From: Candidatus Eiseniibacteriota bacterium
Lineage (GTDB): Bacteria > Eisenbacteria > RBG-16-71-46
DNA length: 64,000 bases
Assembly: GCA_016223045.1 (NCBI GenBank)
Contig: JACRPT010000004.1
Coordinates: forward strand, 2,899 to 66,898
Direction: 5' to 3'
Made by a program: the position numbers and the translations under genes. The notes under the pieces were generated by a model, which saw nothing but the letters and a program-made list of their open reading frames with translations, made no database searches and was not told where the DNA came from. Of this stretch, positions 7,096-58,870 are shown in pieces (position 1 is the stretch's first letter; each line of letters begins with the position of its first letter).

Positions 7096-7385
7096 GGGGA
7101 CCTCCGGGTCTGGAGAGGGGCGAACAGCCCTGGACGAGGGGACGGATGGATCGGGAGCGCCGGGCGGCGCGGGAGGCGGGCGTGCGGGCAAGCGGGCCAT
7201 CATGGCTGCTCCCGGGGAGCGGGTAAGAAAGCGGCACCGGCGCCCCGGCGTGCGCCGGGCCCCGGCGCACGGCTACCGGCGCGAGCGGCGCGCGCCGGGG
7301 TGACCGTCCTTGGTGACGGCAGGACGCTAGGCCCGACCGCTGCGGTGGTCAAGTGGAAGATGCGGCCGTGGAGAATGCCGCGGCC

Positions 7386-19423: not shown

Positions 19424-19627
19424 CTAGCCCGGTCTATTCATGAGCCCGCCGCCTGCGAGCGCGATCTGCACGCCATCCGCAGCGTCGTTCGACCGGCCGC
19501 GACCCACGCTTCGCGTGGGTGCCCCGCGACGTGTCACCGACACGACTCCGTCGCGGCCGGTCGAACTCCTTGCGGCTGCCGCGCATCTCGCACTCTCGGC
19601 TGGCGGTTCATGAATAGGCCGGGCTAG
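19424..19627. mobile_element. Correia-like MITE / palindromic repeat, copy 1 (204 bp)
   Basis: Terminal inverted repeats CTAGCCCGGTCTATTCATGA...TCATGAATAGGCCGGGCTAG. Nested internal inverted repeat GTTCGACCGGCCGC...GCGGCCGGTCGAAC. Roughly 90% identical to copy 2 at 30075-30257, apart from a central indel. Confidence 0.6.
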
Positions 19628-19677
19628 AATCGCCGGGCTCGCAATCGCAGGCGACCCCGTCCCCGAGGAGCCCGACC

Positions 19678-21105
19678 ATCCGACTTCGCTCCCGTCTGCT
19701 TCGCGCCGTCCGGCTGGGCCTGGCCCTCGCCGCGGTCCTCGCGCCCGCGGGCTGCTCGAAGAAGGTGCGGCCGGTGACCGCGCCGCTCGCAGCCGGCCCG
19801 CCGCCGCAGGTGGCCGCGGTCTCGCCGGCTCCACGCGCCACCTTCGTGCTCTATGACTCGACCGCGATCTGGGCCGAGTTCGCGGCCCCGCTCGACTCCA
19901 CCTCGGTCAGCACGCTCAACGTCTATCTCAAGGTGGACACGCGCCGGCTGCCGGTGGCGGTGAGCTGGGAGGCGGCGCGGCGGCGGGTCCACGTCGCGCC
20001 GCTCGTGGTGCTCGACCTCAACCAGACCTACACGGTCGAGCTTTCGCCGAACCTCAGCACCGCTGGCGGCACGCCGCTCGGGCAGAAGTACTCCTGGCAG
20101 TTCACCACGAACAGCCTGCGCCGGCCGACCTCGCCCGCCCCGGCGTCCGGGGCGTCGGGGGAGTCGCCGTTCGCGCCGCTCAAGTGGGGGGGCAACGAGG
20201 CCATCGCTGGATCGGTGAGCTACGAGGTCTTCGCCGGCGACGACTCGGCTGCGGTGGCCGAGCGCCGCGTCCCGCTGCTCACCTCGGGAGCGGCCGCCAT
20301 CTTCGTGCCGCGGACCCGCTGGACGCAGGACGCCACGACCTGGTGGGCGGTGACGGTGGTCAACCTGGCCACGCACGAGCAGCTGCGGGGTCCGGCCTGG
20401 CGCTTCAGCGTGCTCGCCGCGTCCACGCCCGTGGACTCCGTGGCCGCGGTGAGCCTGTTCGCCGGGTACGCGTACCTCGACAACGGGCGCAGCCGTGCCT
20501 CCTGCGGCGCCGACCAGTTCTCCTGCGGCCCCGCCATGAACACCGGCGCGCGCTGGGACTTCGGCGCGTTCCCGCCCACGGCGAAGCTCGCGGGGGCGCG
20601 ACTGGAGCTGCGGGCCTATCCCGGATACGAGGACACGCTGGCGCAGGCCACCGTGACCGCGTGGGTCGCGCTCGCGAGCTGGCTGTGCACCCAGACGGCC
20701 GTCGGCGGGGTTCCGCTTACCGACGAGCGGAACGGCCGGCTGGCGACCGGCACGCTGGTCGAGCCGGGGCACCTGCGCCTGGAGTCGGATGAGCTCGCCG
20801 CGCACCTGCAGGCCACCATCCGCTACGCGACGTTCTACGGCTACGTGCTGCGCGCGAGCCGCGCGGTCCGCTTCGCCTCGCCGATCTACCCGGACGTGGG
20901 CCTGCGCCCGCTGCTCAGGCTCTACTTCTATCGGAGCGGCGGGCCGGCGCCCGTTGCCGCCGCGGCGGGCAGCCGGGCCGGCGCGGCGGCGCGGGTCCGG
21001 ATGTCCCCGCGTGTGCCGAACGGCGCACCCGCGGCGCCATCAAGCCGCGGACAAATCTCCGGCGGCGGACGATTGCGGCTTGACGCCGCGGCGCCGAGCC
21101 GCTGA
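19678..21105 (+). CDS. Hypothetical lipoprotein. The proposed 5' end uses a non-canonical ATC start; the track ORF starts at GTG 19765
   Basis: The in-frame extension upstream of GTG 19765 encodes a textbook lipoprotein signal peptide (RLRSRLLRAVRLGLALAAVLAPAGC). It has no ATG, GTG or TTG. GAGGAG lies 7 nt upstream of ATC 19678. Confidence 0.45.
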   Translation: MRLRSRLLRAVRLGLALAAVLAPAGCSKKVRPVTAPLAAGPPPQVAAVSPAPRATFVLYDSTAIWAEFAAPLDSTSVSTLNVYLKVDTRRLPVAVSWEAARRRVHVAPLVVLDLNQTYTVELSPNLSTAGGTPLGQKYSWQFTTNSLRRPTSPAPASGASGESPFAPLKWGGNEAIAGSVSYEVFAGDDSAAVAERRVPLLTSGAAAIFVPRTRWTQDATTWWAVTVVNLATHEQLRGPAWRFSVLAASTPVDSVAAVSLFAGYAYLDNGRSRASCGADQFSCGPAMNTGARWDFGAFPPTAKLAGARLELRAYPGYEDTLAQATVTAWVALASWLCTQTAVGGVPLTDERNGRLATGTLVEPGHLRLESDELAAHLQATIRYATFYGYVLRASRAVRFASPIYPDVGLRPLLRLYFYRSGGPAPVAAAAGSRAGAAARVRMSPRVPNGAPAAPSSRGQISGGGRLRLDAAAPSR

Positions 21106-21115
21106 ACTCCGCCCG

Positions 21116-22348
21116 ATGCGCCCACGCCCGCACGACCGCGCCATCCCGACCCGCCTGGTCCCGCTCCTGATCGGTCTCCTGGCCGCGGCGCTGGCGTCCG
21201 CGCCGGCGCGCGCGCAGGGCGTGCGCCCGTGGACGCCGCCCTCGGCCGACTCGCTCATCGCCTGGGCCGCCGAGGCGAAGGCGCGCTTCCACCAGAACGC
21301 GGGCGACAGCGCGGGCGGCTCCAACTACCGCGCCTACGAGCTGGTCGGGTTGATGGGTCGCCGCGTGCTGCGCTCGCTCGGGCGCGGGAACCTGGTCCAG
21401 GCGCCGGCGATCAAGCCGGTGCTCGATTCGCTCGGCGTCCAGACCGAGGTGGCGGTGGATCCCGCCGCGCCCTCGTTCGTGCTGCTCATGGTGCGCAACC
21501 CGTTCCAGTACATCGCCGACGCCGTGGGCTTCCTCTACTGGTACCGGGGCGACGACTTCCGCATCCAGGGCGCGGTCTTCCGGGGCGGGCATCACCCGAA
21601 GATCCGCGTGTGGTGGAGCGGCAACCCGCAGTACCCCTACGAGTGGGGCGTGGTGGACGAGACCCGCGGGGGTGCGCTGCGCTTCACGCTGTTCCGGCTG
21701 AGCCCGAGCGGCGGCTGGTGGGACCTGGCGCAGGACGAGGACCGCTTCCCGGTGCTGAGCGAGCCGGGCGAGGCGGTGTGGGCCGACCTCAACAACGACG
21801 GCCGGCCGGAGCTGGTGAGCTGGACGCGCGGGCGCACCGACTCGCTCTTCATCGAATGCTCGGACTGCCCGCGGCTCCTGACCGAGCGCGTGTTCACCGA
21901 GGGCCGCGCCGGCTTCGAACTGCATGACCAGCGCCTGCTGCCCTCGCCCTACGCCACGCTGGTCTACTTCGTGCGGCTGCTGGCCGACCGGAACCTCACC
22001 GCCGCCGGCAGGCTGCTGCGCGACCCGGCGAAGGTGCAGGACGCGCTGGCCCTCGGCTGGGGCGCGAAGCAGGGCAAGGGCGCCTGGACCGTGGAGTACG
22101 GCGAGAGCGGCCAGCCCTGGCCGCGCTGGCTCGAGGTGCGCTTCGACGGCCCGCAGGGCGTCAAGCGCTACGTCATCCACTTCGGCGTGCGCGACGGGCA
22201 CTGGATCATCGAGGACTGGATCGAGCCGCGGCGCCCGAGCACTCCCGGCGGCGTCCCCGGGCCGCCGGCGCCCGCGAAGGCGACGCCCGCGCGGAAGGCG
22301 CCGGCGAAGCCGGGGTCGGCGCCGCAGGCCCCGACGAGGACGAGGTGA
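21116..22348 (+). CDS. Exported hypothetical protein, paralog A (signal peptide; ECSDCP motif)
   Basis: ATG at 21116 followed by MRPRPHDRAIPTRLVPLLIGLLAAALASAPARA. Full-length similarity to the downstream gene. Confidence 0.55.
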   Translation: MRPRPHDRAIPTRLVPLLIGLLAAALASAPARAQGVRPWTPPSADSLIAWAAEAKARFHQNAGDSAGGSNYRAYELVGLMGRRVLRSLGRGNLVQAPAIKPVLDSLGVQTEVAVDPAAPSFVLLMVRNPFQYIADAVGFLYWYRGDDFRIQGAVFRGGHHPKIRVWWSGNPQYPYEWGVVDETRGGALRFTLFRLSPSGGWWDLAQDEDRFPVLSEPGEAVWADLNNDGRPELVSWTRGRTDSLFIECSDCPRLLTERVFTEGRAGFELHDQRLLPSPYATLVYFVRLLADRNLTAAGRLLRDPAKVQDALALGWGAKQGKGAWTVEYGESGQPWPRWLEVRFDGPQGVKRYVIHFGVRDGHWIIEDWIEPRRPSTPGGVPGPPAPAKATPARKAPAKPGSAPQAPTRTR

Positions 22349-22414
22349 CCTCGTGAGGCGGCCGCGCGAAGCAGGTCTCGATGGAGCAGGCGCCGGGGAA
22401 GACGAGGTGAGCGC

Positions 22415-23494
22415 ATGAAACGGCCGCGCCCTCTCGCCATCCTGCTCGCGCTGGCGCTGCTCGCCGGCTGCCAGCGGCAACCGCGCTTCGTCCCGGCCGC
22501 GGCCGACTCGAGCGCCGTACCGGTGGACTCCCTCGCCATCGCGGTGCGGACGATCGCGCAGCGCTGGGACGCCGGCGAGGGGGAGGAGGCCGCGCGCCTC
22601 ACCGCGCGGCTGGTGCTCTCCGACCTGCGCATGCGCCTCAAGGACGAGCCGCGCGCCTCGTGGGAGGAGCGCGCCCGCGCGCTGCTCGACTCGCTCGACG
22701 CGGGCGTCGAGGTGGCGAGCGCGCCGTGCGCCATGGTGGTGGACCTGTTCGCGCGCTCGAACCCCGAGGCCGGCTCGTGGCCGTGGCTCTACTGGTGCAG
22801 CGGGAGCGAGATCCTGGCCCAGCCCATCGAGGGGAACGGCATGAACGTGCTCGGGATGGCATCGCGCGGCCTGTTCGGCGCGTCCTCGACCGCACCGCCG
22901 CAGGTCCCCGAGGGGATCGCGGTGCTCTACGGGCGGCGCGCCGCCGGCGGCCAGCAGCCGGTGCTCATGGCGTGGCGCGCCGCGCGCGGCGACCGCTGGG
23001 AGCTGGCGCAGACGCTCGGCCCTGATTCGCTGGGCGGCGTCGGCGCGGGCGAATTCCGCGCCGTGGACGACACCACGGTCGAGCTCGCGACGCGCACCTG
23101 GAAGGCCGCTCGCGGCTTCGACGAGTGCGCCACCTGCCCGCACGTGTTCGCCTCGCACCGGTTCCGCTGGGGACTCGCCGGCTTCGAGCGCGTCGAGGAC
23201 CGCGTGAGGCCCGCGCCCTACGCGACGTTCGTCCAGCTCATCCAGGCCATGACCGCGGGCGACCGCGAGAGCGCGCTGCGGCTCGTCAGCGATGGCGCGG
23301 TGCTCGAGCAGGCGCGCCGCGCCGAGTGGAACCTGGTCCGGGGCCCGTGGCGCGCCGCGCCCGCGGCCGATGAGACCCCGCACGAGATGGTGTTCTTCCG
23401 CGGCACCACCGAAGCCTGGAAGGTGCGCTTCGACCGGCGCGGCGAGGAGTGGATGGTGGCCGGGCTCTCGCCCACCACACGGGCGATCGAGTAG
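22415..23494 (+). CDS. Hypothetical lipoprotein, paralog B (LLAGC lipobox; ECATCP motif)
   Basis: MKRPRPLAILLALALLAGC. Blocks shared with paralog A: (V/L)LDSL..VEVA, TR.....F.EC..CP, PYAT(L/F)V. Confidence 0.6.
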   Translation: MKRPRPLAILLALALLAGCQRQPRFVPAAADSSAVPVDSLAIAVRTIAQRWDAGEGEEAARLTARLVLSDLRMRLKDEPRASWEERARALLDSLDAGVEVASAPCAMVVDLFARSNPEAGSWPWLYWCSGSEILAQPIEGNGMNVLGMASRGLFGASSTAPPQVPEGIAVLYGRRAAGGQQPVLMAWRAARGDRWELAQTLGPDSLGGVGAGEFRAVDDTTVELATRTWKAARGFDECATCPHVFASHRFRWGLAGFERVEDRVRPAPYATFVQLIQAMTAGDRESALRLVSDGAVLEQARRAEWNLVRGPWRAAPAADETPHEMVFFRGTTEAWKVRFDRRGEEWMVAGLSPTTRAIE

Positions 23495-23550
23495 CGGGGG
23501 CGCCCGCACCCCGTCGTCCACCTCGCGGCGCGCCTGCGCCGATGCCCCGG

Positions 23551-24048
23551 TCAGTTCCTCGCCCTGGCCACCCAGCGGGGGGCCGAATCGGTGGCCTGCC
23601 GGAGGATCAGGTTGAGCTGTGCGGCGTGGTGCTGCACGTGGCGCATGTTGTAGAGCAGCAGCTCGGCGACGCTGCCCTCGATTGATCCGAACCTGCGGCG
23701 TTCACCGGCTTTCCCTCCCGTCAAAGCCTCGATCGTCGCCCTGCACTTCCCGCGGCCGTGCTTGAGATAGGTGCAGAGCTCCTCCTTCGTGTATGGCCGT
23801 TCGGGCAGCAGCCCCGCCGGATCCAGCTCGTCGAGCGTGAAGGGTGGCGGTGGCGCGAATCCCTCGGCCGAGTCCGACAGGTAGAGGTCGAGGAAGAAGA
23901 GCGTGTGGAAGACCAGGTGCCAGAACTCCGGTCGCCGCGAGCGATCGCTCCACAGCCCGTCGGGACAGGCGAGTATGGCGCTCTCGAGCATGTCGATGGC
24001 GGCCCCGAACTGCCGCCAGAGGGCTGCCTGCCAGGTGGTGGTCATCTC
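23551..24048 (-). CDS. DinB/YfiT-like (DinB_2) family protein
   Basis: Start at the internal ATG (MTTTWQAALW...). Has the His-rich four-helix-bundle pattern of DinB-like proteins (H..F..L, HVQHHAAQL). Confidence 0.6.
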   Translation of the reverse strand, partial: EMTTTWQAALWRQFGAAIDMLESAILACPDGLWSDRSRRPEFWHLVFHTLFFLDLYLSDSAEGFAPPPPFTLDELDPAGLLPERPYTKEELCTYLKHGRGKCRATIEALTGGKAGERRRFGSIEGSVAELLLYNMRHVQHHAAQLNLILRQATDSAPRWVARARN

Positions 24049-24094
24049 GGGACTCCGGACTTGGGTGGATTCCTCATTCCGCACGTCTGGCAGA

Positions 24095-25342
24095 TCACGC
24101 CGACTCCCATAGGGCACGCACCGGCACGGCGTGCAGCCCATCGCCGAAGCTCGCGCTGGTCTCCCCGTCATAGAGCACCACGCCTCCGGCAAAGCGCCTG
24201 CCCGCCGCATCCTTGAGCTTGCGCAATCCCCGGAAGTCCGCCGCGGTCACGGTGGCCGCAGCCTTGACCTCCACGCCTGCCAGCGCGCGCGGGCCGCGTT
24301 CGATGACGATGTCAACCTCCGCGCCGTCCTTGTCGCGGTAGTGATAGAACGAGAAGGGCTCGTCATGCCAGCTCGCCTGTCGGCGCAGCTCCTGGAACAC
24401 GAAGGTCTCGAGAAGCTGACCCAGCAGGGGCCGATCCCCCGCGAGCGCGGCGGCATCCACCCCGAGCAGCGCACAGGCGAGTCCGGCGTCACCGAGGTGC
24501 AGCTTCGGCGTCTTGACGAGCCGGCTCAGGCGGTTGCTGTGCCAGGGTGCCAGCCTCTCCAACAGGAACACGCGCTCGAGAAGCGTGACGTAGTCGCGGA
24601 TCGTCGGCCGGCTGAGCTGGAAGGGCGCGGCCAGATCGGTCACGTTGAGCAGCCGCGCCGTGTGCGCCGCGGCGAGCCCGAGCAGCCGCGGAAGTGCGTC
24701 GAGCGAGCCGATGCGGGCCAGATCGCGGACATCGCGCTGGACCAGCGCGTCGAGGTAGTCGCGGTACCACGCAGTGCGCCGTCGTCCGGCCGGCCGCGCC
24801 AGCGCTGCCGGATACCCACCCGCGGCGATCCGTTCGGCGAGCTGGCCGGACAGCCGCTCGGTCCGCCGGGTCTTGAAGCCGCCCTCGAACAGGGCGTCCA
24901 GGAAGCGCGGCGGGCGCCTCACCAGCTCGCACTGTGCCAGCGGGTGCAACCGCAGGATCTCCATGCGACCCGCCAGCGAGTCCGCGAGCTTCGGCACCAG
25001 CAGCACGTTGGACGAGCCGGTCAGCATGAAGCGACCCGCCGCGCGCTTGCGGTCCACCGCAGTCTTCAACGCGGTGAAGAGCGCCGGCACGCGCTGCACT
25101 TCGTCCAGGATCGCCCGCTCCGGCAGATCGGCGACGAAGCCCATGGAATCCGCCTCGGCTGCGCCTCGCGCGACGTCGTCGTCGAAACTCACGTAGGTGT
25201 AGCCCCTGGGATCGCCCACCATGCGGGCGAGCGTGGTCTTGCCGCATTGGCGCGGGCCGTGGATCAGCACGACCGGCGAATCGGCCAGCGCCTCGGTCAG
25301 GCGCGGCCCGGCGTAGCGCGGGTAGAAGGGGGTCTCAGGCAC
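24095..25342 (-). CDS. AAA-family ATPase with DUF4143 (COG1373-like)
   Basis: Walker A GPRQCGKTT, Walker B-like ILDEVQ, and a C-terminal DUF4143-like region. The 5' end is uncertain. A GTG near 25342 is proposed because no ATG is available. Confidence 0.65.
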   Translation of the reverse strand: MPETPFYPRYAGPRLTEALADSPVVLIHGPRQCGKTTLARMVGDPRGYTYVSFDDDVARGAAEADSMGFVADLPERAILDEVQRVPALFTALKTAVDRKRAAGRFMLTGSSNVLLVPKLADSLAGRMEILRLHPLAQCELVRRPPRFLDALFEGGFKTRRTERLSGQLAERIAAGGYPAALARPAGRRRTAWYRDYLDALVQRDVRDLARIGSLDALPRLLGLAAAHTARLLNVTDLAAPFQLSRPTIRDYVTLLERVFLLERLAPWHSNRLSRLVKTPKLHLGDAGLACALLGVDAAALAGDRPLLGQLLETFVFQELRRQASWHDEPFSFYHYRDKDGAEVDIVIERGPRALAGVEVKAAATVTAADFRGLRKLKDAAGRRFAGGVVLYDGETSASFGDGLHAVPVRALWESA

Positions 25343-25434
25343 CGGCCGATCGTAATCCCTGCGTCCGGCCAATCGCAAGGTTGAGGTTCGGCCAATCGAA
25401 AGGATCGTGGTCGGCCGATCGCAAGGCGAGGTTC
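25341..25434. repeat. Four tandem direct repeats of about 23.5 bp with the core CGGCC(A/G)ATCG(Y/A)AAGG
   Basis: ccggccgatcgtaatcc / ccggccaatcgcaagg / cggccaatcgaaagg / cggccgatcgcaagg, at a regular spacing of about 23-24 bp. They sit at or overlap the 5' end of the ATPase gene. Confidence 0.55.
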
Positions 25435-25862
25435 CCGGCGACTTGCAGCCGCGCGGGCGGTGAAGGCCGTCGCGGGCGCCCCGCGAGGCGGCGGCGCGAC
25501 GAGGGGGTCGGTCGTCAGATGACCTCCCAAGAACCGCTCGGCCCCCTTCACCAGCAGCTCTCAGGAGATGAGCCTGGCAGCAGCGCGTCGCGCGGGATGG
25601 CGCGGGCAGGGGATCCATGGATGTTCGCGAGGCCACGCTGGATCAGCGGGCGGGATGCACCCATCCCAGAGTGATCCACACAAGCCAAACTGCGCCACGT
25701 CTCGCGGAGCTCCGAGCATCCACGCACCCGCGGTATCCCACTCCGCCGCTTTTCGCTTCGGCGCCGCCCGCGCCGCGCGCTATACTGCGGCCCTCCCGGC
25801 GACCCGAGCACCCCCGCATCCCTCTTCGCGGGCCGCACAGCGCGGCCCGACAGGTCCCACGC

Positions 25863-28334
25863 ATGCACTCGCGACCCACCCGCTTCCTCGAGGGGCCGCC
25901 CGGCCCTGCCGACGCCGGCTCGCTCGCCGCCTGGATCGCCGACCTCGCGCATCGTCCCGAGAACCGCGGCGCGCTCGCGCACTGGGAGACGCTGCCTGCG
26001 CGTCCCGCGCGCTGCGGCGAGCTGTCGTTCCCGCTGCCCTCGGCGCTCGCCGAGGCGCTGGCCGCGCGCGGCATCGAGCGGCTCTACACGCACCAGGTGC
26101 AGGCCATCGAGGCGCTGCGCGGCGGGCTCGACACGGTGGTGGTGACCGGCACGGCGAGCGGCAAGAGCCTGTGCTACCACGTGCCGGTGCTGGAGACGCT
26201 GCTGGTCGAGCCGGGCGCGACCGCGCTCTACCTGTTCCCGACCAAGGCGCTGGCGCAGGACCAGCTCAAAGGTCTGGTGCGGCTCGCCTCCGGGCATCCC
26301 GATGTGCTGAAGCGCCTGGTTGCGGGCGTCTACGACGGCGACACGCAGCCGGCGACGCGCCGCAAGCTCAGAGACGGCGCGAACCTCATCCTCTCCAACC
26401 CCGACATGCTGCACCAGGGCATCCTGCCCTACCACCCCAAGTGGGCGCGCTTCCTGCGCGCGCTGCGCTACGTGGTGGTGGACGAGATCCACGCCTACCG
26501 CGGCATCTTCGGCTCGCACGTGGCGAACGTGCTGCGCCGGCTCGAGCGCGTGGTGCGCCACCTGGGCGGTGACGCCCGCTTCGTGATGTGCAGCGCCACC
26601 ATCCGCAACCCGCAGGAGCTGGCCGAGCGGCTGACCGGCCGCGCGGTGACGGTGGTGGACGACGACGGCTCGCCGCGCGGCGAGAAGCACTTCGTGTTCT
26701 GGAACCCGCCGCACACCGACGGCGCGCGCGTGGAGCGCCGCTCCTCGAACGTCGAGGGCTGCGACCTGCTGACCGGTCTGATCGAGCGCGGCGCGCAGGC
26801 GCTGGTGTTCACCAAGTCGCGCGTCGCGGCCGAGCTGGTCTACCGCTACGCGCGCGAGCGGCTGGAGCGCGTGCGGCCGGGGCTCGGGGAGGCGATCCGC
26901 CCGTACCGCGGCGGCTACCTGCCGGAGGAGCGCAGGAAGATCGAGCAGGCGCTGTTCTCGGGCGAGCTGCGCGGCGTGGTGAGCACCAACGCGCTCGAGC
27001 TGGGCGTGGACATCGGCGGGCTCGACGCGGTGGTGATGATCGGCGCGCCGCCGACGCTCGCCAGCCTGTGGCAGCAGGCCGGGCGCGCCGGGCGCGGGCC
27101 CCGCCGGGCGCCCGGCGGCGCGGAGGCCGGGGCGGGTCCCCGCTCCGCGCCCGGTGACGCGGCCGCCGAAGCGGGTTCCCGCCCCGGGGAGGTCGCGCCC
27201 GCGCTGGCGGTGCTGGTGGCCTACAACGAGACGGTGGACCAGTACCTGATGCGCCACCCCGGCTACTTCTTCGGGCGCTCGCCCGAAGCGGCGGTGATCG
27301 ATCCGCACAACCCCTACATCCTGGCGCAGCAGCTGGCGTGCGCGGCCTACGAGCTGCCGCTCGAGGTGGACGACGCGGTGACCTTCGGTCCGCAGGCCGC
27401 CGCGATCCTCGCCGCGCTCGAGCAGGCAGGGGAGATGCGCGCGATCGATGGGCGCGCCTACTGGGCGCAGACCGAGTTCCCGGCCGCGCGCGTCAACCTG
27501 CGCACCATCTCGGACAACACCTACACCATCATGAACGCCGCCGCCGACAACGCGGTGATCGGCACGGTGGACGCGATCAGCGCGCTCGAGCTGGTCTATC
27601 CCGAGGCGATCTACCTGCACGAGGGCGAGACCTGGTTCGTGAAGAGCCTGGACCTGGAGCAGAAGACGGCCTGCGTCGAACCGCGCCGGGTGGACTACTA
27701 CACGTCACCCGTGCTCGACACTTCGATCCGGGTGCGCGGCACGCTGGAGAGCCGCGCCTGGCGCGGCGAGCAGGTGACGCTCGGCGAGCTGACCTACTCG
27801 TGGCAGACCGTGGCGATGAAGAAGGTGAGGTTCCACTCCTTGGACGCCATCGGCTACCACCCGCTCGATCTGCCGCGGCTCACCCTCGACACCGCCGGCT
27901 TCTGGCTCGCGCCCGGCGAAGCGGCGTGGAGCGCGGTGGCGCGCCGCGGCCTCAACCCGGTCGAAGGCCTGATGGGCGTGCGCAACCTGTTCATGACCCT
28001 GCTCGCCATGCTCAGCATGTGCGACCCGGCGGACCTGGGCGGCAAGCTCGACTCGTCGAACCTGGGCCGCCCGGCGCTGTTCATGTTCGACCGCTATCCC
28101 GGCGGGCTCGGCTTCTGCGAGCAGGGCTACGCCCGCCTCGACGAGCTGGCCACCGCGGCGCTCGAACACCTCGAAGCCTGCGACTGCGAGTCCGGCTGCC
28201 CGGCCTGCGTCGGGCTGCCGACGCTATGGCCCGCCCAGCAGCAGGACCCCGACCTGATGCACGGACGCGAGATCCCGGGCAAGGAAGCGGCGCGCGTGCT
28301 GCTCCGCCACTGGCTCGCGAGCGAGGACCGATGA
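25863..28334 (+). CDS. DEAD/DEAH-box (DExH) helicase with a C-terminal DUF1998 Cys4 domain (MrfA/YprA-like)
   Basis: Walker A GTASGKS, a DExH box (VVVDEIHAY), helicase C-terminal motifs, and the C-terminal CDCESGCPACV cluster. Start at the internal ATG 25863. The upstream part of the track ORF is junk. Confidence 0.8.
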   Translation: MHSRPTRFLEGPPGPADAGSLAAWIADLAHRPENRGALAHWETLPARPARCGELSFPLPSALAEALAARGIERLYTHQVQAIEALRGGLDTVVVTGTASGKSLCYHVPVLETLLVEPGATALYLFPTKALAQDQLKGLVRLASGHPDVLKRLVAGVYDGDTQPATRRKLRDGANLILSNPDMLHQGILPYHPKWARFLRALRYVVVDEIHAYRGIFGSHVANVLRRLERVVRHLGGDARFVMCSATIRNPQELAERLTGRAVTVVDDDGSPRGEKHFVFWNPPHTDGARVERRSSNVEGCDLLTGLIERGAQALVFTKSRVAAELVYRYARERLERVRPGLGEAIRPYRGGYLPEERRKIEQALFSGELRGVVSTNALELGVDIGGLDAVVMIGAPPTLASLWQQAGRAGRGPRRAPGGAEAGAGPRSAPGDAAAEAGSRPGEVAPALAVLVAYNETVDQYLMRHPGYFFGRSPEAAVIDPHNPYILAQQLACAAYELPLEVDDAVTFGPQAAAILAALEQAGEMRAIDGRAYWAQTEFPAARVNLRTISDNTYTIMNAAADNAVIGTVDAISALELVYPEAIYLHEGETWFVKSLDLEQKTACVEPRRVDYYTSPVLDTSIRVRGTLESRAWRGEQVTLGELTYSWQTVAMKKVRFHSLDAIGYHPLDLPRLTLDTAGFWLAPGEAAWSAVARRGLNPVEGLMGVRNLFMTLLAMLSMCDPADLGGKLDSSNLGRPALFMFDRYPGGLGFCEQGYARLDELATAALEHLEACDCESGCPACVGLPTLWPAQQQDPDLMHGREIPGKEAARVLLRHWLASEDR

Positions 28335-29094
28335 CCACATCCGAATGGCCCGTCGCCTTCTTCGACGACGACTACCTGAAGATCTACCGCCCGATGTTCT
28401 CGCCCGAGGTCACCGGGCGCGAGGTCGCCTTCATCGAGTCGGCGCTGGCGCCGCCCGCGGGCGGCGCGCTGCTCGACCTGGCCTGCGGCTACGGCCGCCA
28501 CGCCATCGGTCTCGCCGGGCGCGGCTACCGCGTGACCGGCGTGGACTTCAACCCGCGCTACCTGGCGGTCGCCGGGCAGGACGCGGCCGCGGCCGGCGCC
28601 GCCGTCACCTGGACGCAGGGCGACATGCGCGAGCTGGCCTTCGACCGGGCGTTCGACGGCGTGTACTCCTACTTCACCTCGTTCGGGTACTTCTCGGACG
28701 CCGAGAACGAGCGCGTCATCGCCGGCGTGGCGCGCGCGCTCAAGAGCGGCGGGCGCTTCCTCCTGGACATGACGAACCGCGACTGGATCCTCACCCACCC
28801 GCAGCAGCGCATCTGGAACCAGCTCGCGGACGGCTCGCTGCTCATGGAGGAGGTCTCGCTCGACCTGGTCCGCTCGCTGGTGATCACGCGCCAGATCCAC
28901 ATCGCCCCGGCGGGCGGCACGCGGCTGACCAAGGAGTACCAGTTGCGCGCCTACACCTGCGCCGAGCTGACCGCGCTGTTCGCGCGCCACGGGCTCGCGG
29001 TGCGCGAGGCGTGGGGCGGCGCCGACCGCAGCGCGTACTCCACCGAGAGCCGCCGCCTGGTGCTGCTCGCGGTGCGCGAGGGCGGCGATGGCTG
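28331..29094 (+). CDS. Class I SAM-dependent methyltransferase (type 11/12-like)
   Basis: Motif I LDLACGYGRH and the post-I acidic residue (VDF). There is no DPPY or PC motif, so it is probably not a DNA methyltransferase. Its ATG overlaps the helicase stop (ATGA). Confidence 0.75.
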
Positions 29095-29942
29095 AGCCGG
29101 ACGCGCTGCGCGCGCGGCTGGGCGAGCTGGCGCGCGGGCGGCGCGCGCGCATGGGGCCGGCGGCCGATTCGAGTGCCGCGCCGGTGCACCGCGGTGGCGC
29201 GGACCACGCCGCGCCCGCGGTGGGCGTCGAGGAGTTCCTGCCGGGTGGCGAGTGGAGCGACGGGCGCGGCGCGGTCTACGTGCACGAGCGCCTCCGCTCG
29301 GAGATCGAGCAGCCGCGCCCGTACTGGGGGTGGCTCGAGCGGCCGCCCGCGCACGAGCCCGAGCTGGGAGCGCTGGCGGAGGCGGGGCTCTCACGCGCGC
29401 TCTTCCTCGACCTCGAGACCTGCGGGCTCGCCTCGAGCCCGGTGTTCCTGGCCGGCACCATGCACTGGAACGGCGCGGACTTCGTGCTGCGCCAGTACTT
29501 CGCACGGCACTACGGCGAGGAGGGGACGCTGCTGCGCGCGCTCGACCAGGCGGTGCGCGGCTTCGAGTTCCTGGTCACGTTCAACGGCAAGTCCTACGAC
29601 GCACCGTTCCTCGCCGGCCGCTCGGTGGTGCACGGCGTGCCGCTGGCGCTGCCGCCGCGCCACGTGGACCTGCTGCATGCCGCGCGCCGCCGCTGGAAGA
29701 TCGAGCTGCCCGACTGCCGGCTCACCACGCTCGAGCTGCACGTGTGCCGCCGCCGCCGCGTCGGCGACGTGCCCGGCGAGGAGGTGCCCGGGCTCTACCA
29801 CGACTACGTGAAGCGCGGCGATCCCTACCGGCTCATCCCGGTCTTCCACCACAACCTGCTCGACGTCGTCACCATGGCCGAGGTGCTGCGCGCGTTGTGC
29901 GCGGCCGTGCGCCCGCGGCGGAGCGCGCGCGCCGGGACCTGA
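29088..29942 (+). CDS. DEDD-type 3'-5' exonuclease, RNase-H-like (YprB/MrfB-like)
   Basis: Exo I LFLDLETCGL, Exo II TFNGKSYDAPFL, and Exo III YHDYV...HHNLLDVVTMAEV. Its ATG overlaps the methyltransferase stop (ATGGCTGA). Confidence 0.7.
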   Translation: MAEPDALRARLGELARGRRARMGPAADSSAAPVHRGGADHAAPAVGVEEFLPGGEWSDGRGAVYVHERLRSEIEQPRPYWGWLERPPAHEPELGALAEAGLSRALFLDLETCGLASSPVFLAGTMHWNGADFVLRQYFARHYGEEGTLLRALDQAVRGFEFLVTFNGKSYDAPFLAGRSVVHGVPLALPPRHVDLLHAARRRWKIELPDCRLTTLELHVCRRRRVGDVPGEEVPGLYHDYVKRGDPYRLIPVFHHNLLDVVTMAEVLRALCAAVRPRRSARAGT

Positions 29943-30074
29943 GGCGCGCTGCGGGATGCGGCGCGGGGGATTGCGGGCTGCACGGCCGCGGGTCGCGCGC
30001 CCGACGGGCGCACCGCAACCGCCGCACGTTGCGCAGGCGCGGCGCGCGTGGCTCGCGGGTTGCAAGGTCCGGCG

Positions 30075-30257
30075 CTAGCCCGGTCTATTCATGAGCCCGC
30101 CGCCTGCGAGCGCGATCTGCACGCCATCCGCGGCGTCGTTCGACCGGCCGCTTCCTCGACGTGTTGACAACACGACTCCGTCGCGGCCGGTCGAACTCCT
30201 TGCGGCTGCCGCGCATCTCGCACTCTCGGCTGGCGGTTCATGAATAGACCGGGCTAG
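30075..30257. mobile_element. Correia-like MITE / palindromic repeat, copy 2 (183 bp)
   Basis: Same terminal inverted repeats as copy 1, with a perfect right end. The centre contains the palindrome CGTGTTGACAACACG, which carries a TTGACA hexamer. It lies 44 bp upstream of the pilin-like gene. Confidence 0.6.
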
Positions 30258-30859: not shown

Positions 30860-30889
30860 TTGACACCCCTCTCCGGGCGAACCTATACT
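30860..30889 (+). promoter_or_regulatory. Sigma70-like promoter for the cold-shock gene, followed by a 5'UTR of about 190 nt
   Basis: TTGACA (30860-30865), an 18-bp spacer, then TATACT (30884-30889). The ATG is at 31084. Confidence 0.5.
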
Positions 30890-31083
30890 TTCCGCGCAGT
30901 TCAACGGTGACCCGGTCCAGTCCGCGTGGTACGTCCGTGAGCCTCGCTTCCCGTCAGTCCGTCATCCGAGTCGTTCCCCGGGTCGTCCGTCTCATCGTGT
31001 GAGCCGCCCTGGCAGCCCTCCGCTGCCGGGGCATCTGTGTTTTCGGGCAATGCGTCCAACCTTTCTCGGAGGCTCGGGGCGAC

Positions 31084-57137: not shown

Positions 57138-57361
57138 GCCTCGCTCCTCGTGTCGGCCCGGGTGCGGTCACCGTTGACCTTCGGGGGGCCGGATGGTAGC
57201 ACTTACCGGTCTTTGCCCGGGGTCAGAACCCTCTCGCGGGCCCGGAACCGGGACCGGCCCTCGACCCGCAGGTCGCCCGTCATCGTCGTCGGGTGCGGGT
57301 GCTCCGGTCGCAACCGGTTCCATCGTCTCGCCGTCGCCATCGTTCGAGGAGGTCGTCCCTC

Positions 57362-58870
57362 ATGAGCTGGACCAAACGCGCGCTCCTGTCCCTGGCCCTC
57401 GCCGTGCTGTCCGCCGCGCCGGCGGGCGCCCAGATCGCCGGGCGGCCGTTCGAGATCTCGGGCACCGCCGGGTACTTCCACTACGACGCGCGCGCCCGGA
57501 TGAAGGACGGCCCGGCGTGGAACGGGGCGCTGGGCTGGCGGCTGATGCCCGCGCTCACCCTCGAGGGCAACGCGACCTTCGGACCCTCGAACGCCGACTC
57601 GGTCGCCTACGACCTCGCCCACAACTTCACCTACGCGGGGCTCGACCTGCGCTGGAACCTGCGCCCGGCCGACAGCCGCGTGGTGCCGTTCGTGCTGACC
57701 GGCGCGGGCTACGGCCGGAGCCACACCACCGGCACGCCGCCCGACAAGCTCGAGCGCGGCGCCGGCGACCTCGGCCTCGGCGTGCTCTTCAACGTGGTCA
57801 ACCAGCGTACCTACGTGCGACTCCAGGCGCGCGACCAGTTCTTCCGCGGGCGCAACGCGCTCGAGTTCGGGAACCACTTCGCGGTGACCGCGGGGCTTCA
57901 CCTGCTGTGGGGCGGCAAGCCGCGCGACCAGGACCTGGACGGCGTGCGCGACTGGCTCGACAAGTGCCCGAACACCCCGATCGGCGCGACGGTGGACCAG
58001 GGCGGCTGCCCGCTGGAATCGGACGGCGACGGCGTCTTCGATGGGCTCGACAAGTGCCCGGACACGCCGAAGGGCTGCAAGGTGGACAAGAGCGGTTGTC
58101 CGCTGGACGCGGACGGCGACGGCGTGTGCGACGGCCTCGACCAGTGCGAGGGCACCCCGAAGGGCGCGAAGGCGGACGCGAAGGGCTGCCCGACGGACGC
58201 GGACGGCGACGGCGTCTTCGACGGCCTCGACCAGTGCGAGGGCACGCTCCAGGGCTGCAGCGTGGATGGGACGGGATGCGTCGTGGACTCGGACCGTGAC
58301 GGCGTGTGCGACGGGCTCGACCAGTGCCCGAACACGCCCGACAGCATCAAGGTGGACGTGAACGGCTGCCCGATCGAGGTGAGCGAGAAGGAGACCGAGC
58401 TGCTCGACACCGGCGTGATCCGGCTCCGCAACGTCAACTTCGACACCGGCAAGGCCGTCATCAAGGAGGAGTCGTTCGCCGTGCTCGACGAGATCGGGGC
58501 GATCCTCCAGCAGTACCCGGCGCTCCGGATCGAGATCGGCGGACACACCGACAACGTCGGCGGCAAGGAGATGAACCAGACGCTCTCGGAGGCGCGCGCG
58601 AACGCGGTGCTCGACTACCTCAAGCAGAAGTCCCCGCTGCTGGACTTCGGCCAGTTCACGGCGGTCGGGTACGGGCTCTCGCAGCCGCTGGCCTCGAACG
58701 CGCGCGAGGTTGGCCGGGCCCTGAACCGCCGCGTCGAGTTCAAGGTGCTGAACCCCGAGGCGCTCAAGATCGAGCGCGAGAAGCGGCGCTTCCTCAGGAA
58801 GGACGAGCCGCTGCCGCCGGGCTACCCGCCGGCGGCAGTGCCCGACACCTCGGGCACCAGGAAGCCGTAG
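57362..58870 (+). CDS. OmpA-family outer-membrane protein with thrombospondin type-3 Ca-binding repeats and a C-terminal OmpA peptidoglycan-binding domain
   Basis: Signal peptide and an N-terminal beta-barrel-like region. About six DxDxDGV(F/C)DGLD(K/Q)CP repeats. The C-terminus has NVNFDTGKA....RIEIGGHTDN..G....N..LS..RA OmpA_C. Confidence 0.75.
   Translation: MSWTKRALLSLALAVLSAAPAGAQIAGRPFEISGTAGYFHYDARARMKDGPAWNGALGWRLMPALTLEGNATFGPSNADSVAYDLAHNFTYAGLDLRWNLRPADSRVVPFVLTGAGYGRSHTTGTPPDKLERGAGDLGLGVLFNVVNQRTYVRLQARDQFFRGRNALEFGNHFAVTAGLHLLWGGKPRDQDLDGVRDWLDKCPNTPIGATVDQGGCPLESDGDGVFDGLDKCPDTPKGCKVDKSGCPLDADGDGVCDGLDQCEGTPKGAKADAKGCPTDADGDGVFDGLDQCEGTLQGCSVDGTGCVVDSDRDGVCDGLDQCPNTPDSIKVDVNGCPIEVSEKETELLDTGVIRLRNVNFDTGKAVIKEESFAVLDEIGAILQQYPALRIEIGGHTDNVGGKEMNQTLSEARANAVLDYLKQKSPLLDFGQFTAVGYGLSQPLASNAREVGRALNRRVEFKVLNPEALKIEREKRRFLRKDEPLPPGYPPAAVPDTSGTRKP

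Follow-up and report, generated by a model that had tools for sequence, protein, structure and literature searches.

Two repeats around a 10.6-kb gene block of Candidatus Eisenbacteria are miniature transposable elements with IS1380-type ends

Introduction

Two copies of a palindromic repeat, at positions 19424-19627 and 30075-30257, lie in the same orientation on either side of a 10.6-kb block of genes in a 64-kb stretch of DNA from Candidatus Eisenbacteria (the window, by which we mean the whole of the stretch that was analysed). The host is recognizable from the helicase gene of the block, whose so-named homologues are 75-78% identical and whose best matches reach 84%. The question that this locus raises is what the repeats are, how they moved, and whether they have anything to do with the genes that they bracket or precede. 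A preliminary description of the window had taken them for Correia-like elements, possibly with a TA target site, and had considered that they might be a mobile promoter or regulatory cassette and that the bracketed block might have been mobilised as a unit. Our data indicate that the repeat is a miniature inverted-repeat transposable element (MITE) with its origin in the IS1380 family of insertion sequences (IS), an ordinary selfish element of a known kind. We put a probability of about 0.85 on the reading that both repeats are copies of a MITE with IS1380-type ends, moved in trans by an IS1380-family DDE transposase.

Anatomy of the two copies

The coordinates above include the CTAG tetranucleotides that flank each copy and that we read as target-site duplications (TSDs; 19424..19427 and 19624..19627 for copy 1, 30075..30078 and 30254..30257 for copy 2). 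Without these flanks copy 1 measures 196 bp (19428..19623, plus strand) and copy 2 measures 175 bp (30079..30253, plus strand). Both elements terminate in 16-nt terminal inverted repeats (TIRs), CCCGGTCTATTCATGA, with 0-1 mismatch; the left TIRs are found on the plus strand at 19428..19443 and 30079..30094, and the right TIRs on the minus strand at 19608..19623, where copy 1 reads CCCGGCCTATTCATGA, and at 30238..30253. In the window we count four occurrences of the 20-mer CTAGCCCGGTCTATTCATGA, arranged as two inverted pairs, two per element (the right end of copy 1 with one mismatch), whereas 100 dinucleotide-preserving shuffles produced none. The window holds no third copy of the element. A nested inverted repeat, GTTCGACCGGCCGC / GCGGCCGGTCGAAC, lies further inward at 19487/19553 in copy 1 and at 30138/30183 in copy 2. 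The positions, inverted ends and nested repeat of the preliminary description are thus borne out, while its statement that the copies differ by a central indel alone has to be amended, as 9 substitutions accompany the single 21-nt indel and identity over the aligned columns is 94.9%.

Folding, which had been proposed as a check, bore out the palindromic character of the element. As RNA each copy forms one long imperfect hairpin, with a minimum free energy of -138 kcal/mol for copy 1 and -120 kcal/mol for copy 2 (z-scores of -12.7 and -11.9), and with DNA parameters the hairpin reaches -64.8 kcal/mol (z = -9.4). At the apex of copy 2 is a small hairpin, GACGTGT-TGACA-ACACGAC (30158..30176, plus strand), whose stem and flanks are near-invariant in the family and whose TTGACA-holding loop is variable.

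The 21-nt indel is itself a tiny stem-loop, GACCCACGC-TTCG-GCGTGGGT-GCC (19501..19523, plus strand), that is present in copy 1 and missing from copy 2 and from the canonical 175/176-bp form of the family. Very similar units, GACCC..TT(T)CG..GGGT[G/A]CCCC, have entered further copies of this MITE family at two more positions, namely in the left arm (L126) and to the right of the apex (L164, L169, L208, L216 and L239), and they also stand at two places outside any MITE (L200:4259, and L226 at 5556 on the minus strand). In all, the mini-hairpin gave 8 matches in the 1.67 Mb of locus DNA compared. This UUCG-loop unit could be an independent mini-repeat, a smaller mobile unit or a recurrent product of template switching, and it is the secondary oddity of the family.

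Ends shared with IS1380-family elements

The identity of the element rests on its ends. The 16-nt end of the MITE, CCCGGYCTATTCATGA, matches one end, the transposase-distal one, of 1.6-kb elements with genes for IS1380-family (PF13701) transposases, and full-length carriers of the matching end were found on Sphingobium and Sphingomonas plasmids and in one Armatimonadetes metagenome-assembled genome (MAG). In this MAG (L029) the ends belong to an element measuring 1.5 kb or more, whose open reading frame (ORF) matches PF13701 DDE_Tnp_1_4 with E = 2.6e-111. A BLAST search of the end against plasmids placed it next to genes annotated as 'IS1380 family transposase' in Sphingobium WTD-1 (transposase WP_284110910), S. 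yanoikuyae and S. xenophagum, and the same end terminates elements of 1614-1651 bp in Sphingomonas NBWT7 and Mesorhizobium. The plasmid elements with this end include L120 (1647 bp, CTAG on both flanks), L121 (the S. yanoikuyae element, 1646 bp, CTAA on both flanks), L249 (1651 bp, CTAG on both flanks), L248 (1614 bp) and L247; the gene beside the end is annotated as 'IS1380 family transposase' in L120, L121 and L247 and as a short 'transposase' gene in L249. No IS630 transposase was seen among the transposase genes found beside this end, all of which belong to the IS1380 family.

In four of four elements with a readable gene, the matching end adjoins the stop codon of the transposase and is by convention the right inverted repeat (IRR), which means that the MITE carries two IRR-like ends; the opposite end in the Sphingobium IS copies reads ...CGGTGAATAAGACGGG. 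The identity extends inward, with TTCATGAGCCCGC common to the IRR side of the Sphingobium IS and the window MITE. IS1380-family ends begin with CC (a criterion of ISfinder) and are accompanied by 4-5-bp direct repeats, and the MITE ends likewise begin with CC. One member of the family, IS1247, has a 5-bp direct repeat and 16/13 inverted repeats (PMC3281130 Table 2). The window element therefore has inverted repeats that match those of PF13701/IS1380 elements and direct repeats within the 4-5 bp range, and it combines these with a size well below 500 bp, no transposase, TIRs, a target-site duplication, many dispersed copies and ends in common with an autonomous element, as a MITE does. No ORF is kept across the MITE copies, the short internal ORFs of one copy being broken in others, and the translated frames gave only 6 matches in a protein database.

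How widely the end is distributed was seen in a scan of 185,579 species-representative genomes for exact matches to its 19-mer, TAGCCCGGYCTATTCATGA, which recovered at least 119 loci in about 10 phyla. The hosts among the loci listed include Planctomycetota (about 70 loci, in one MAG), Armatimonadota, Nitrospira, Acidobacteriota and Verrucomicrobiota, as well as Dokdonella, Sphingomonas, Pseudomonadales and Polyangiaceae, so that Gamma-, Alpha- and Deltaproteobacteria are all represented. Complete two-ended elements of 101-256 bp account for at least 39 genome copies (41 with the two window copies) and nearly all of them are flanked by CTAG. The sequence inward of the end varies between host lineages, and an nhmmer profile of the window subfamily found weak full-length similarity to the MITEs of other phyla (E = 1e-7 to 1e-4), which indicates that the lineages share ends but little else. 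A scan of viral contigs for the end sequence returned 0 matches. These copy numbers, together with the TIRs, the target-site duplications and the full-length IS1380 elements that share the end, support the suggestion of the preliminary description that the repeat could be a non-autonomous transposable element.

The subfamily to which the window copies belong was collected from metagenomes with the exact internal 21-mer TTCATGAGCCCGCCGCCTGCG, which is present at no fewer than 120 soil and sediment loci. Among the loci listed, 66 copies are complete and 40 of these are exactly 176 bp long, the modal length. Many of the metagenome contigs break off some 118 nt into the element, as one would expect of a palindromic repeat that disrupts assembly. 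Two Logan contigs whose sequence is that of the window likewise end at copy 2, the first some 30 nt inward of its left end and the second at its right-hand CTAG. Mean pairwise identity within the subfamily is 79%, and this value together with the many decayed TSDs indicates an old family with many decayed copies. Among the copies compared, those of the window are each other's closest relatives (the next closest is 92% identical), which is consistent with a recent transposition within this genome.

Several observations weigh against the reading set out above. A tblastn search with two IS1380 transposases matched only L029, L120 and L121 among the window and loci L001-L245, so that neither the 64-kb window nor the 120 metagenome loci of the subfamily contain such a gene, and no parent element was found within Eisenbacteria. 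In the comparison of orthologous loci that had been proposed, relatives that lack both MITE copies were found (L123-L125), but their neighbouring gene content differs as well and no strict empty-site allele was recovered. The search of the compared DNA with joined flanks yielded one distant orthologue pair, in which the gene of L216 carries the element at a C|TAG stop and that of L196 ends in TGA without it. Finally, the complementarity of the element along its whole length and its near-invariant apex, both taken up below, exceed what end recognition by a transposase needs.

Target site and length of the duplication

With CTAG as the target, a duplication of TA and a duplication of CTAG leave identical sequences, and the window copies alone fit either model. 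A Correia-like or IS630/Tc1-mariner-type MITE would insert at the TA within CTAG and duplicate TA only, in which case the element would read G...C and be one base longer at each end. The full-length S. yanoikuyae IS and a metagenome MITE in L145 separate the two models, as both have CTAA on either flank. CTAA/CTAA is a perfect 4-bp repeat, which a TA duplication could produce only from an element with non-complementary termini; the duplication is therefore 4 bp long, a length that we apply to the CTAG flanks of the window copies, and the element proper starts with CCCGG. Among the metagenome copies (n = 65) the flanks are CTAG/CTAG in 27, CTAA/CTAA in 1 and different by one base in 25, and the decayed TSDs differ also at the inner T and A positions, as a TA duplication would not lead one to expect. 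Four copies from the first scan speak for the TA model and against ours in that their flanks differ at the outermost base only (GTAG/CTAG in L015; CTAG/CTAA in L061, L080 and L085), which is what a TA duplication predicts. An IS630-type origin is further opposed by the IS1380 affiliation of every transposase gene beside this end and by the CC with which the ends begin. Taking these points together we consider the TA model very improbable; the Correia-like nature and TA target of the preliminary description give way to IS1380-type ends and a 4-bp duplication. The idea of an IS630 element with a TA target, which the CTAG flanks had initially suggested to us as well, was rejected in view of the adjoining IS1380 transposases and the CTAA/CTAA duplications.

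One MITE copy has flanks other than CTAG, reading TTAA/TTCA (L204, L231 and L252-L254, which are the same locus). It is identical in three independent assemblies (NCBI, ENA and JGI) and its flanks resemble the TTAA target of piggyBac.

The block between the copies

The fact that two copies in the same orientation bracket the block suggested a composite transposon that had imported the 10.6 kb as a unit, and it speaks for this that the genes for a Big_5 lipoprotein, DinB_2 and AAA_14/DUF4143 are missing at this locus in relatives. However, three relatives without the MITE (L123, from a 3.6-Mb contig, L124 and L125) keep the core genes of the block in the order of the window, namely homologues of the two genes for exported proteins at 21100-22348 and 22415-23494 followed by the helicase, methyltransferase and exonuclease. 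In these relatives the core genes directly adjoin homologues of genes that lie outside the block in the window: on the upstream side these are TANGO2, HAD and TonB_C, and on the downstream side zf_Tbcl/CSD, DUF885, lipase and Toluene_X. The extras that are specific to the window are found in three separate places: 14.3-21.1 kb, which includes copy 1; 23.5-25.6 kb, with DinB_2 and AAA_14/DUF4143; and about 0.9 kb with copy 2 and the pilin gene. A core that is colinear with both flanks in relatives, and extras that are scattered over three places and do not form one insert, mean that the block did not arrive as one unit. There is also no transposase among the genes of the block. We regard its import as a composite transposon as extremely improbable, and the repeats as MITE copies that happen to stand on either side of it.

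The operon at 25617-29942 encodes a helicase (DEAD, Helicase_C, WHD_HRQ1 and the MrfA Zn-binding domain), a SAM methyltransferase and an exonuclease of RNase_H_2 fold. It is kept in the Eisenbacteria relatives and looks like the MrfAB repair pair to which a methyltransferase has been joined. Between this operon and the divergent AAA_14/DUF4143 gene, at 25366-25434, there are three tandem copies of the 23-nt unit CGGCCAATCGCAAGGTCGAGGTT, which might be repeated binding sites. Elsewhere in the window, a gene for an OmpA-family outer-membrane protein (57200-58870) contains about five 90-nt repeats in tandem, at 57931-58373, that code for thrombospondin type-3 (calcium-binding) repeats.

Neighbouring genes and the promoter question

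From the end of copy 2 it is 44 nt to the pilin ATG (30302), close to the 45-50 bp of the preliminary description. The corresponding figure for copy 1 needs qualification, since the point 50 nt downstream of its end, where the lipoprotein signal peptide starts, is an ATC codon (19678) and the first canonical start in this frame is the GTG at 19765. The Big_5 lipoprotein gene in question (19678-21105) begins with a textbook lipoprotein signal peptide, RLRSRLLRAVRLGLALAAVLAPAGC, which a start at 19765 would remove. Its frame contains no ATG, GTG or TTG between the in-frame TAG at 19615-19617, in the right end of copy 1, and GTG 19765, and a GAGGAG at 19665-19670 lies 7 nt before the ATC. These features point either to an error in the sequence or to translation from a non-canonical ATC.

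The positions of both copies, in the same orientation and 44-50 nt upstream of genes for exported proteins, invite the reading that the element, or at least these two copies, is a mobile promoter or cis-regulatory RNA cassette for the genes downstream. Outward promoters are known from IS1380-family elements such as ISEcp1 and ISPme1 (PMC9330008), the pilin ATG is so close to copy 2 that pilin transcripts would either start in the element or cross it, and the hairpin covariation and conserved apex described below could be expected of such a cassette. Scans in and near both copies nevertheless found no sigma-70-like promoter and no intrinsic terminator. This null result for promoters carries weight, since the phylum does use consensus promoters: the CSD gene nearby has a textbook TTGACA-N17-TATACT in front of it, both in the window and in relatives. 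The TTGACA reported for copy 2 is indeed present at 30164, but it is not in copy 1, it lies in the variable apical loop and it occurs in 1 of 60 aligned family members, copy 2 itself. Nor do the surroundings of about 120 copies show any preference for orientation or for a place upstream of genes: 84 flanks have a gene end towards the element and 72 a gene start. As for a regulatory RNA, the nearly pure Watson-Crick covariation with few G-U pairs is atypical for selected RNA, and Rfam at gathering thresholds matched one tRNA only in the whole window, while a permissive scan of copy 1 gave chance-level matches only.

The exact position of many copies also argues against a regulatory cassette. 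Among 50 copies with long flanks there are 23 in which a coding-like ORF has its stop codon in the TAG of the duplicated CTAG, compared with 53 of 203 unoccupied CTAG sites, and in the orthologue pair mentioned above it is the gene ending GAC-TAG that bears the element. CTAG itself is scarce: its frequency in the metagenome loci L126-L245 is 0.24 per kb, about a tenth of the composition-based expectation, and the window has 13 sites in 64 kb, 4 of which are the MITE flanks (the others are at 7327, 11081, 12429, 14147, 51624, 53577, 62038, 62335 and 62575). Target specificity and the scarcity of CTAG would together steer copies to gene ends. A mobile promoter or regulatory cassette is thus not supported by the family-level data and we hold it to be improbable, although copy 2 may have a local effect on pilin transcription.

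The TTGACA-N17-TATACT promoter of the zf_Tbcl/CSD gene is followed by a 5' leader of roughly 200 nt (window 30860-31083) that is kept in two Eisenbacteria relatives (L123:14330-14570 and L124:14100-14332) and has no Rfam match at the gathering threshold. It may be a regulatory leader of the cold-shock type.

Covariation of the hairpin

An alignment of 60 distinct subfamily copies (A2) revealed how the palindrome has been preserved. Near-invariant regions are the inner part of the ends (TTCATGA), TCTCGGCTGGCGGTTCATGAA in the right arm and the apex, TCCTCGACGTGT..ACACGACTGCGTCGCG. RNAalifold found double changes in 23 of 53 pairs, and in a test with fixed structure 95.7% of cells pair, compared with 86.8% in shuffles (0/500), with 311 double-change cells compared with 101, although such covariation counts are inflated by the kinship of the copies, as the tool itself cautions. 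In slid controls the paired share is 31-41%. A single position may show as many as four types of pair, as do columns 10/237 with AU 21, CG 18, UA 4 and GC 3, and G-U pairs make up only about 5% of cells; with so few of them, the preserved complementarity is of a Watson-Crick, DNA-like kind. Bulges and a fixed G-T at 21/226 are asymmetries common to the subfamilies, which therefore descend from one asymmetric ancestor and not from repeated fold-back. The minus strand folds about 13 kcal/mol better than the plus strand in 59 of 60 copies, which is not due to G-U pairs; a strand-specific RNA was considered on this account and dropped, as the copies are related by descent.

Why the hairpin is maintained can be explained by three causes that need not exclude one another. 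The need for ends suitable to one transposase may contribute, but it explains the outer 16 nt only. The changes along the stem may be due to template-switch correction, a well-established source of mutations in quasi-palindromes that can yield Watson-Crick 'compensation' where there is no selection. There may also be a real requirement for the hairpin, such that the whole length and the apex would serve as a cruciform or single-stranded substrate that joins ends too close for duplex looping when so short an element transposes, or as an RNA 3'-end structure exploited by the host, an orientation-independent stabiliser or terminator. Compensatory changes far inside the 16-nt ends, the near-invariant apex, a length fixed at 176 bp in most complete copies, the very stable folding of both strands and the enrichment of copies at gene 3' ends are in keeping with such a function. 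The inflation of the counts by related copies and the ability of template switching to imitate compensation count against it, and we consider a function beyond the ends unlikely, if still worth entertaining. If true, it would mean that IS1380/piggyBac-type transposases have structure-dependent miniature substrates that are widespread across bacterial phyla.

Proposed mechanism

In the scheme that we propose, an IS1380-family DDE transposase would move the 175-196-bp element in trans, acting on ends that start and finish with CCCGG(N)CTATTCATGA(G/A), the IRR of a full-length IS1380-type IS; the transposase-distal end of the parent of roughly 1.6 kb is expected to read CCCGGTCTATTCATGAGCCCGCCGCC. 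Insertion takes place into CTAG, occasionally CTAA or TTAA, with duplication of the 4 bp. In these genomes of roughly 70% GC, CTAG falls about ten times short of its expected frequency and is often a C followed by a TAG stop codon, for which reason many copies land exactly at gene ends and leave the stop intact. The body of the element is a palindrome with imperfections, and Watson-Crick changes that compensate each other have preserved its complementarity. The two copies in the window would stem from recent transposition within the genome, as their mutual similarity suggests, with copy 1 later acquiring the 21-nt mini-hairpin; they would be two independent insertions into two intergenic regions, the genes between them being ordinary chromosomal genes.

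Meaning and comparison with known systems

With this analysis a repeat that is common among uncultured soil phyla and breaks up their metagenome assemblies gains a name and a likely mechanism, namely an IS1380-type transposase, CTAG as the target and a 4-bp duplication. The more exciting readings, mobilisation of a gene block and a mobile promoter, are removed. The result suggests that the elements are guided to stop codons by the rarity of CTAG in GC-rich genomes, and a stop codon would be a harmless place to land. The literature that we searched contains no description of an IS1380-derived MITE family, which may exist beyond it. The family may help annotation, and what novelty remains lies in the whole-length covariation of the hairpin and its conserved apex.

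Compared with the IS1380 family (ISEcp1, IS1247, ISPme1; PF13701), the MITE has ends that start with CC and match the IRR of L029, L120, L121, L247, L248 and L249, and its 4-bp duplication is within the 4-5 bp of the family. It differs in that the full-length relatives measure 1614-1651 bp whereas the window elements are 175-196 bp long and non-coding, in having two IRR-like ends in place of a left inverted repeat and an IRR, in forming one long hairpin and in the lack of a cognate transposase in the window. The Correia elements of Neisseria (CREE/NEMIS) are likewise small (100-200 bp), abundant and intergenic, with TIRs and a hairpin. They have a TA duplication, 26-bp TIRs of probably unrelated sequence, an IHF site and promoter elements borne on the ends, and are not known to have a transposase; the window MITE, on the other hand, has a 4-bp CTAG duplication and IS1380-like ends, and no promoter signal or orientation bias was found for it. 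Repetitive extragenic palindromes (REP/BIME), ERIC sequences and other palindromic repeats between bacterial genes share with it a GC-rich, hairpin-forming nature, a frequent position at gene 3' ends and a conserved secondary structure. However, REPs have neither TIRs nor TSDs and are moved by RAYT (HUH) enzymes, unlike the window elements with their DDE-type ends and target duplications.

The piggyBac MITEs of eukaryotes, which target TTAA, are a close parallel. The piggyBac TIR also begins with CCC, and in both cases a palindromic 4-bp target is duplicated, TTAA for piggyBac and CTAG here, where a few copies have TTAA-like flanks. IS1380 transposases have been used as the prokaryotic outgroup of piggyBac (PMC10813416). 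The two differ in domain of life and target tetranucleotide, and precise excision and hairpin intermediates are known for piggyBac. In simple form, the window family is the bacterial counterpart of piggyBac MITEs.

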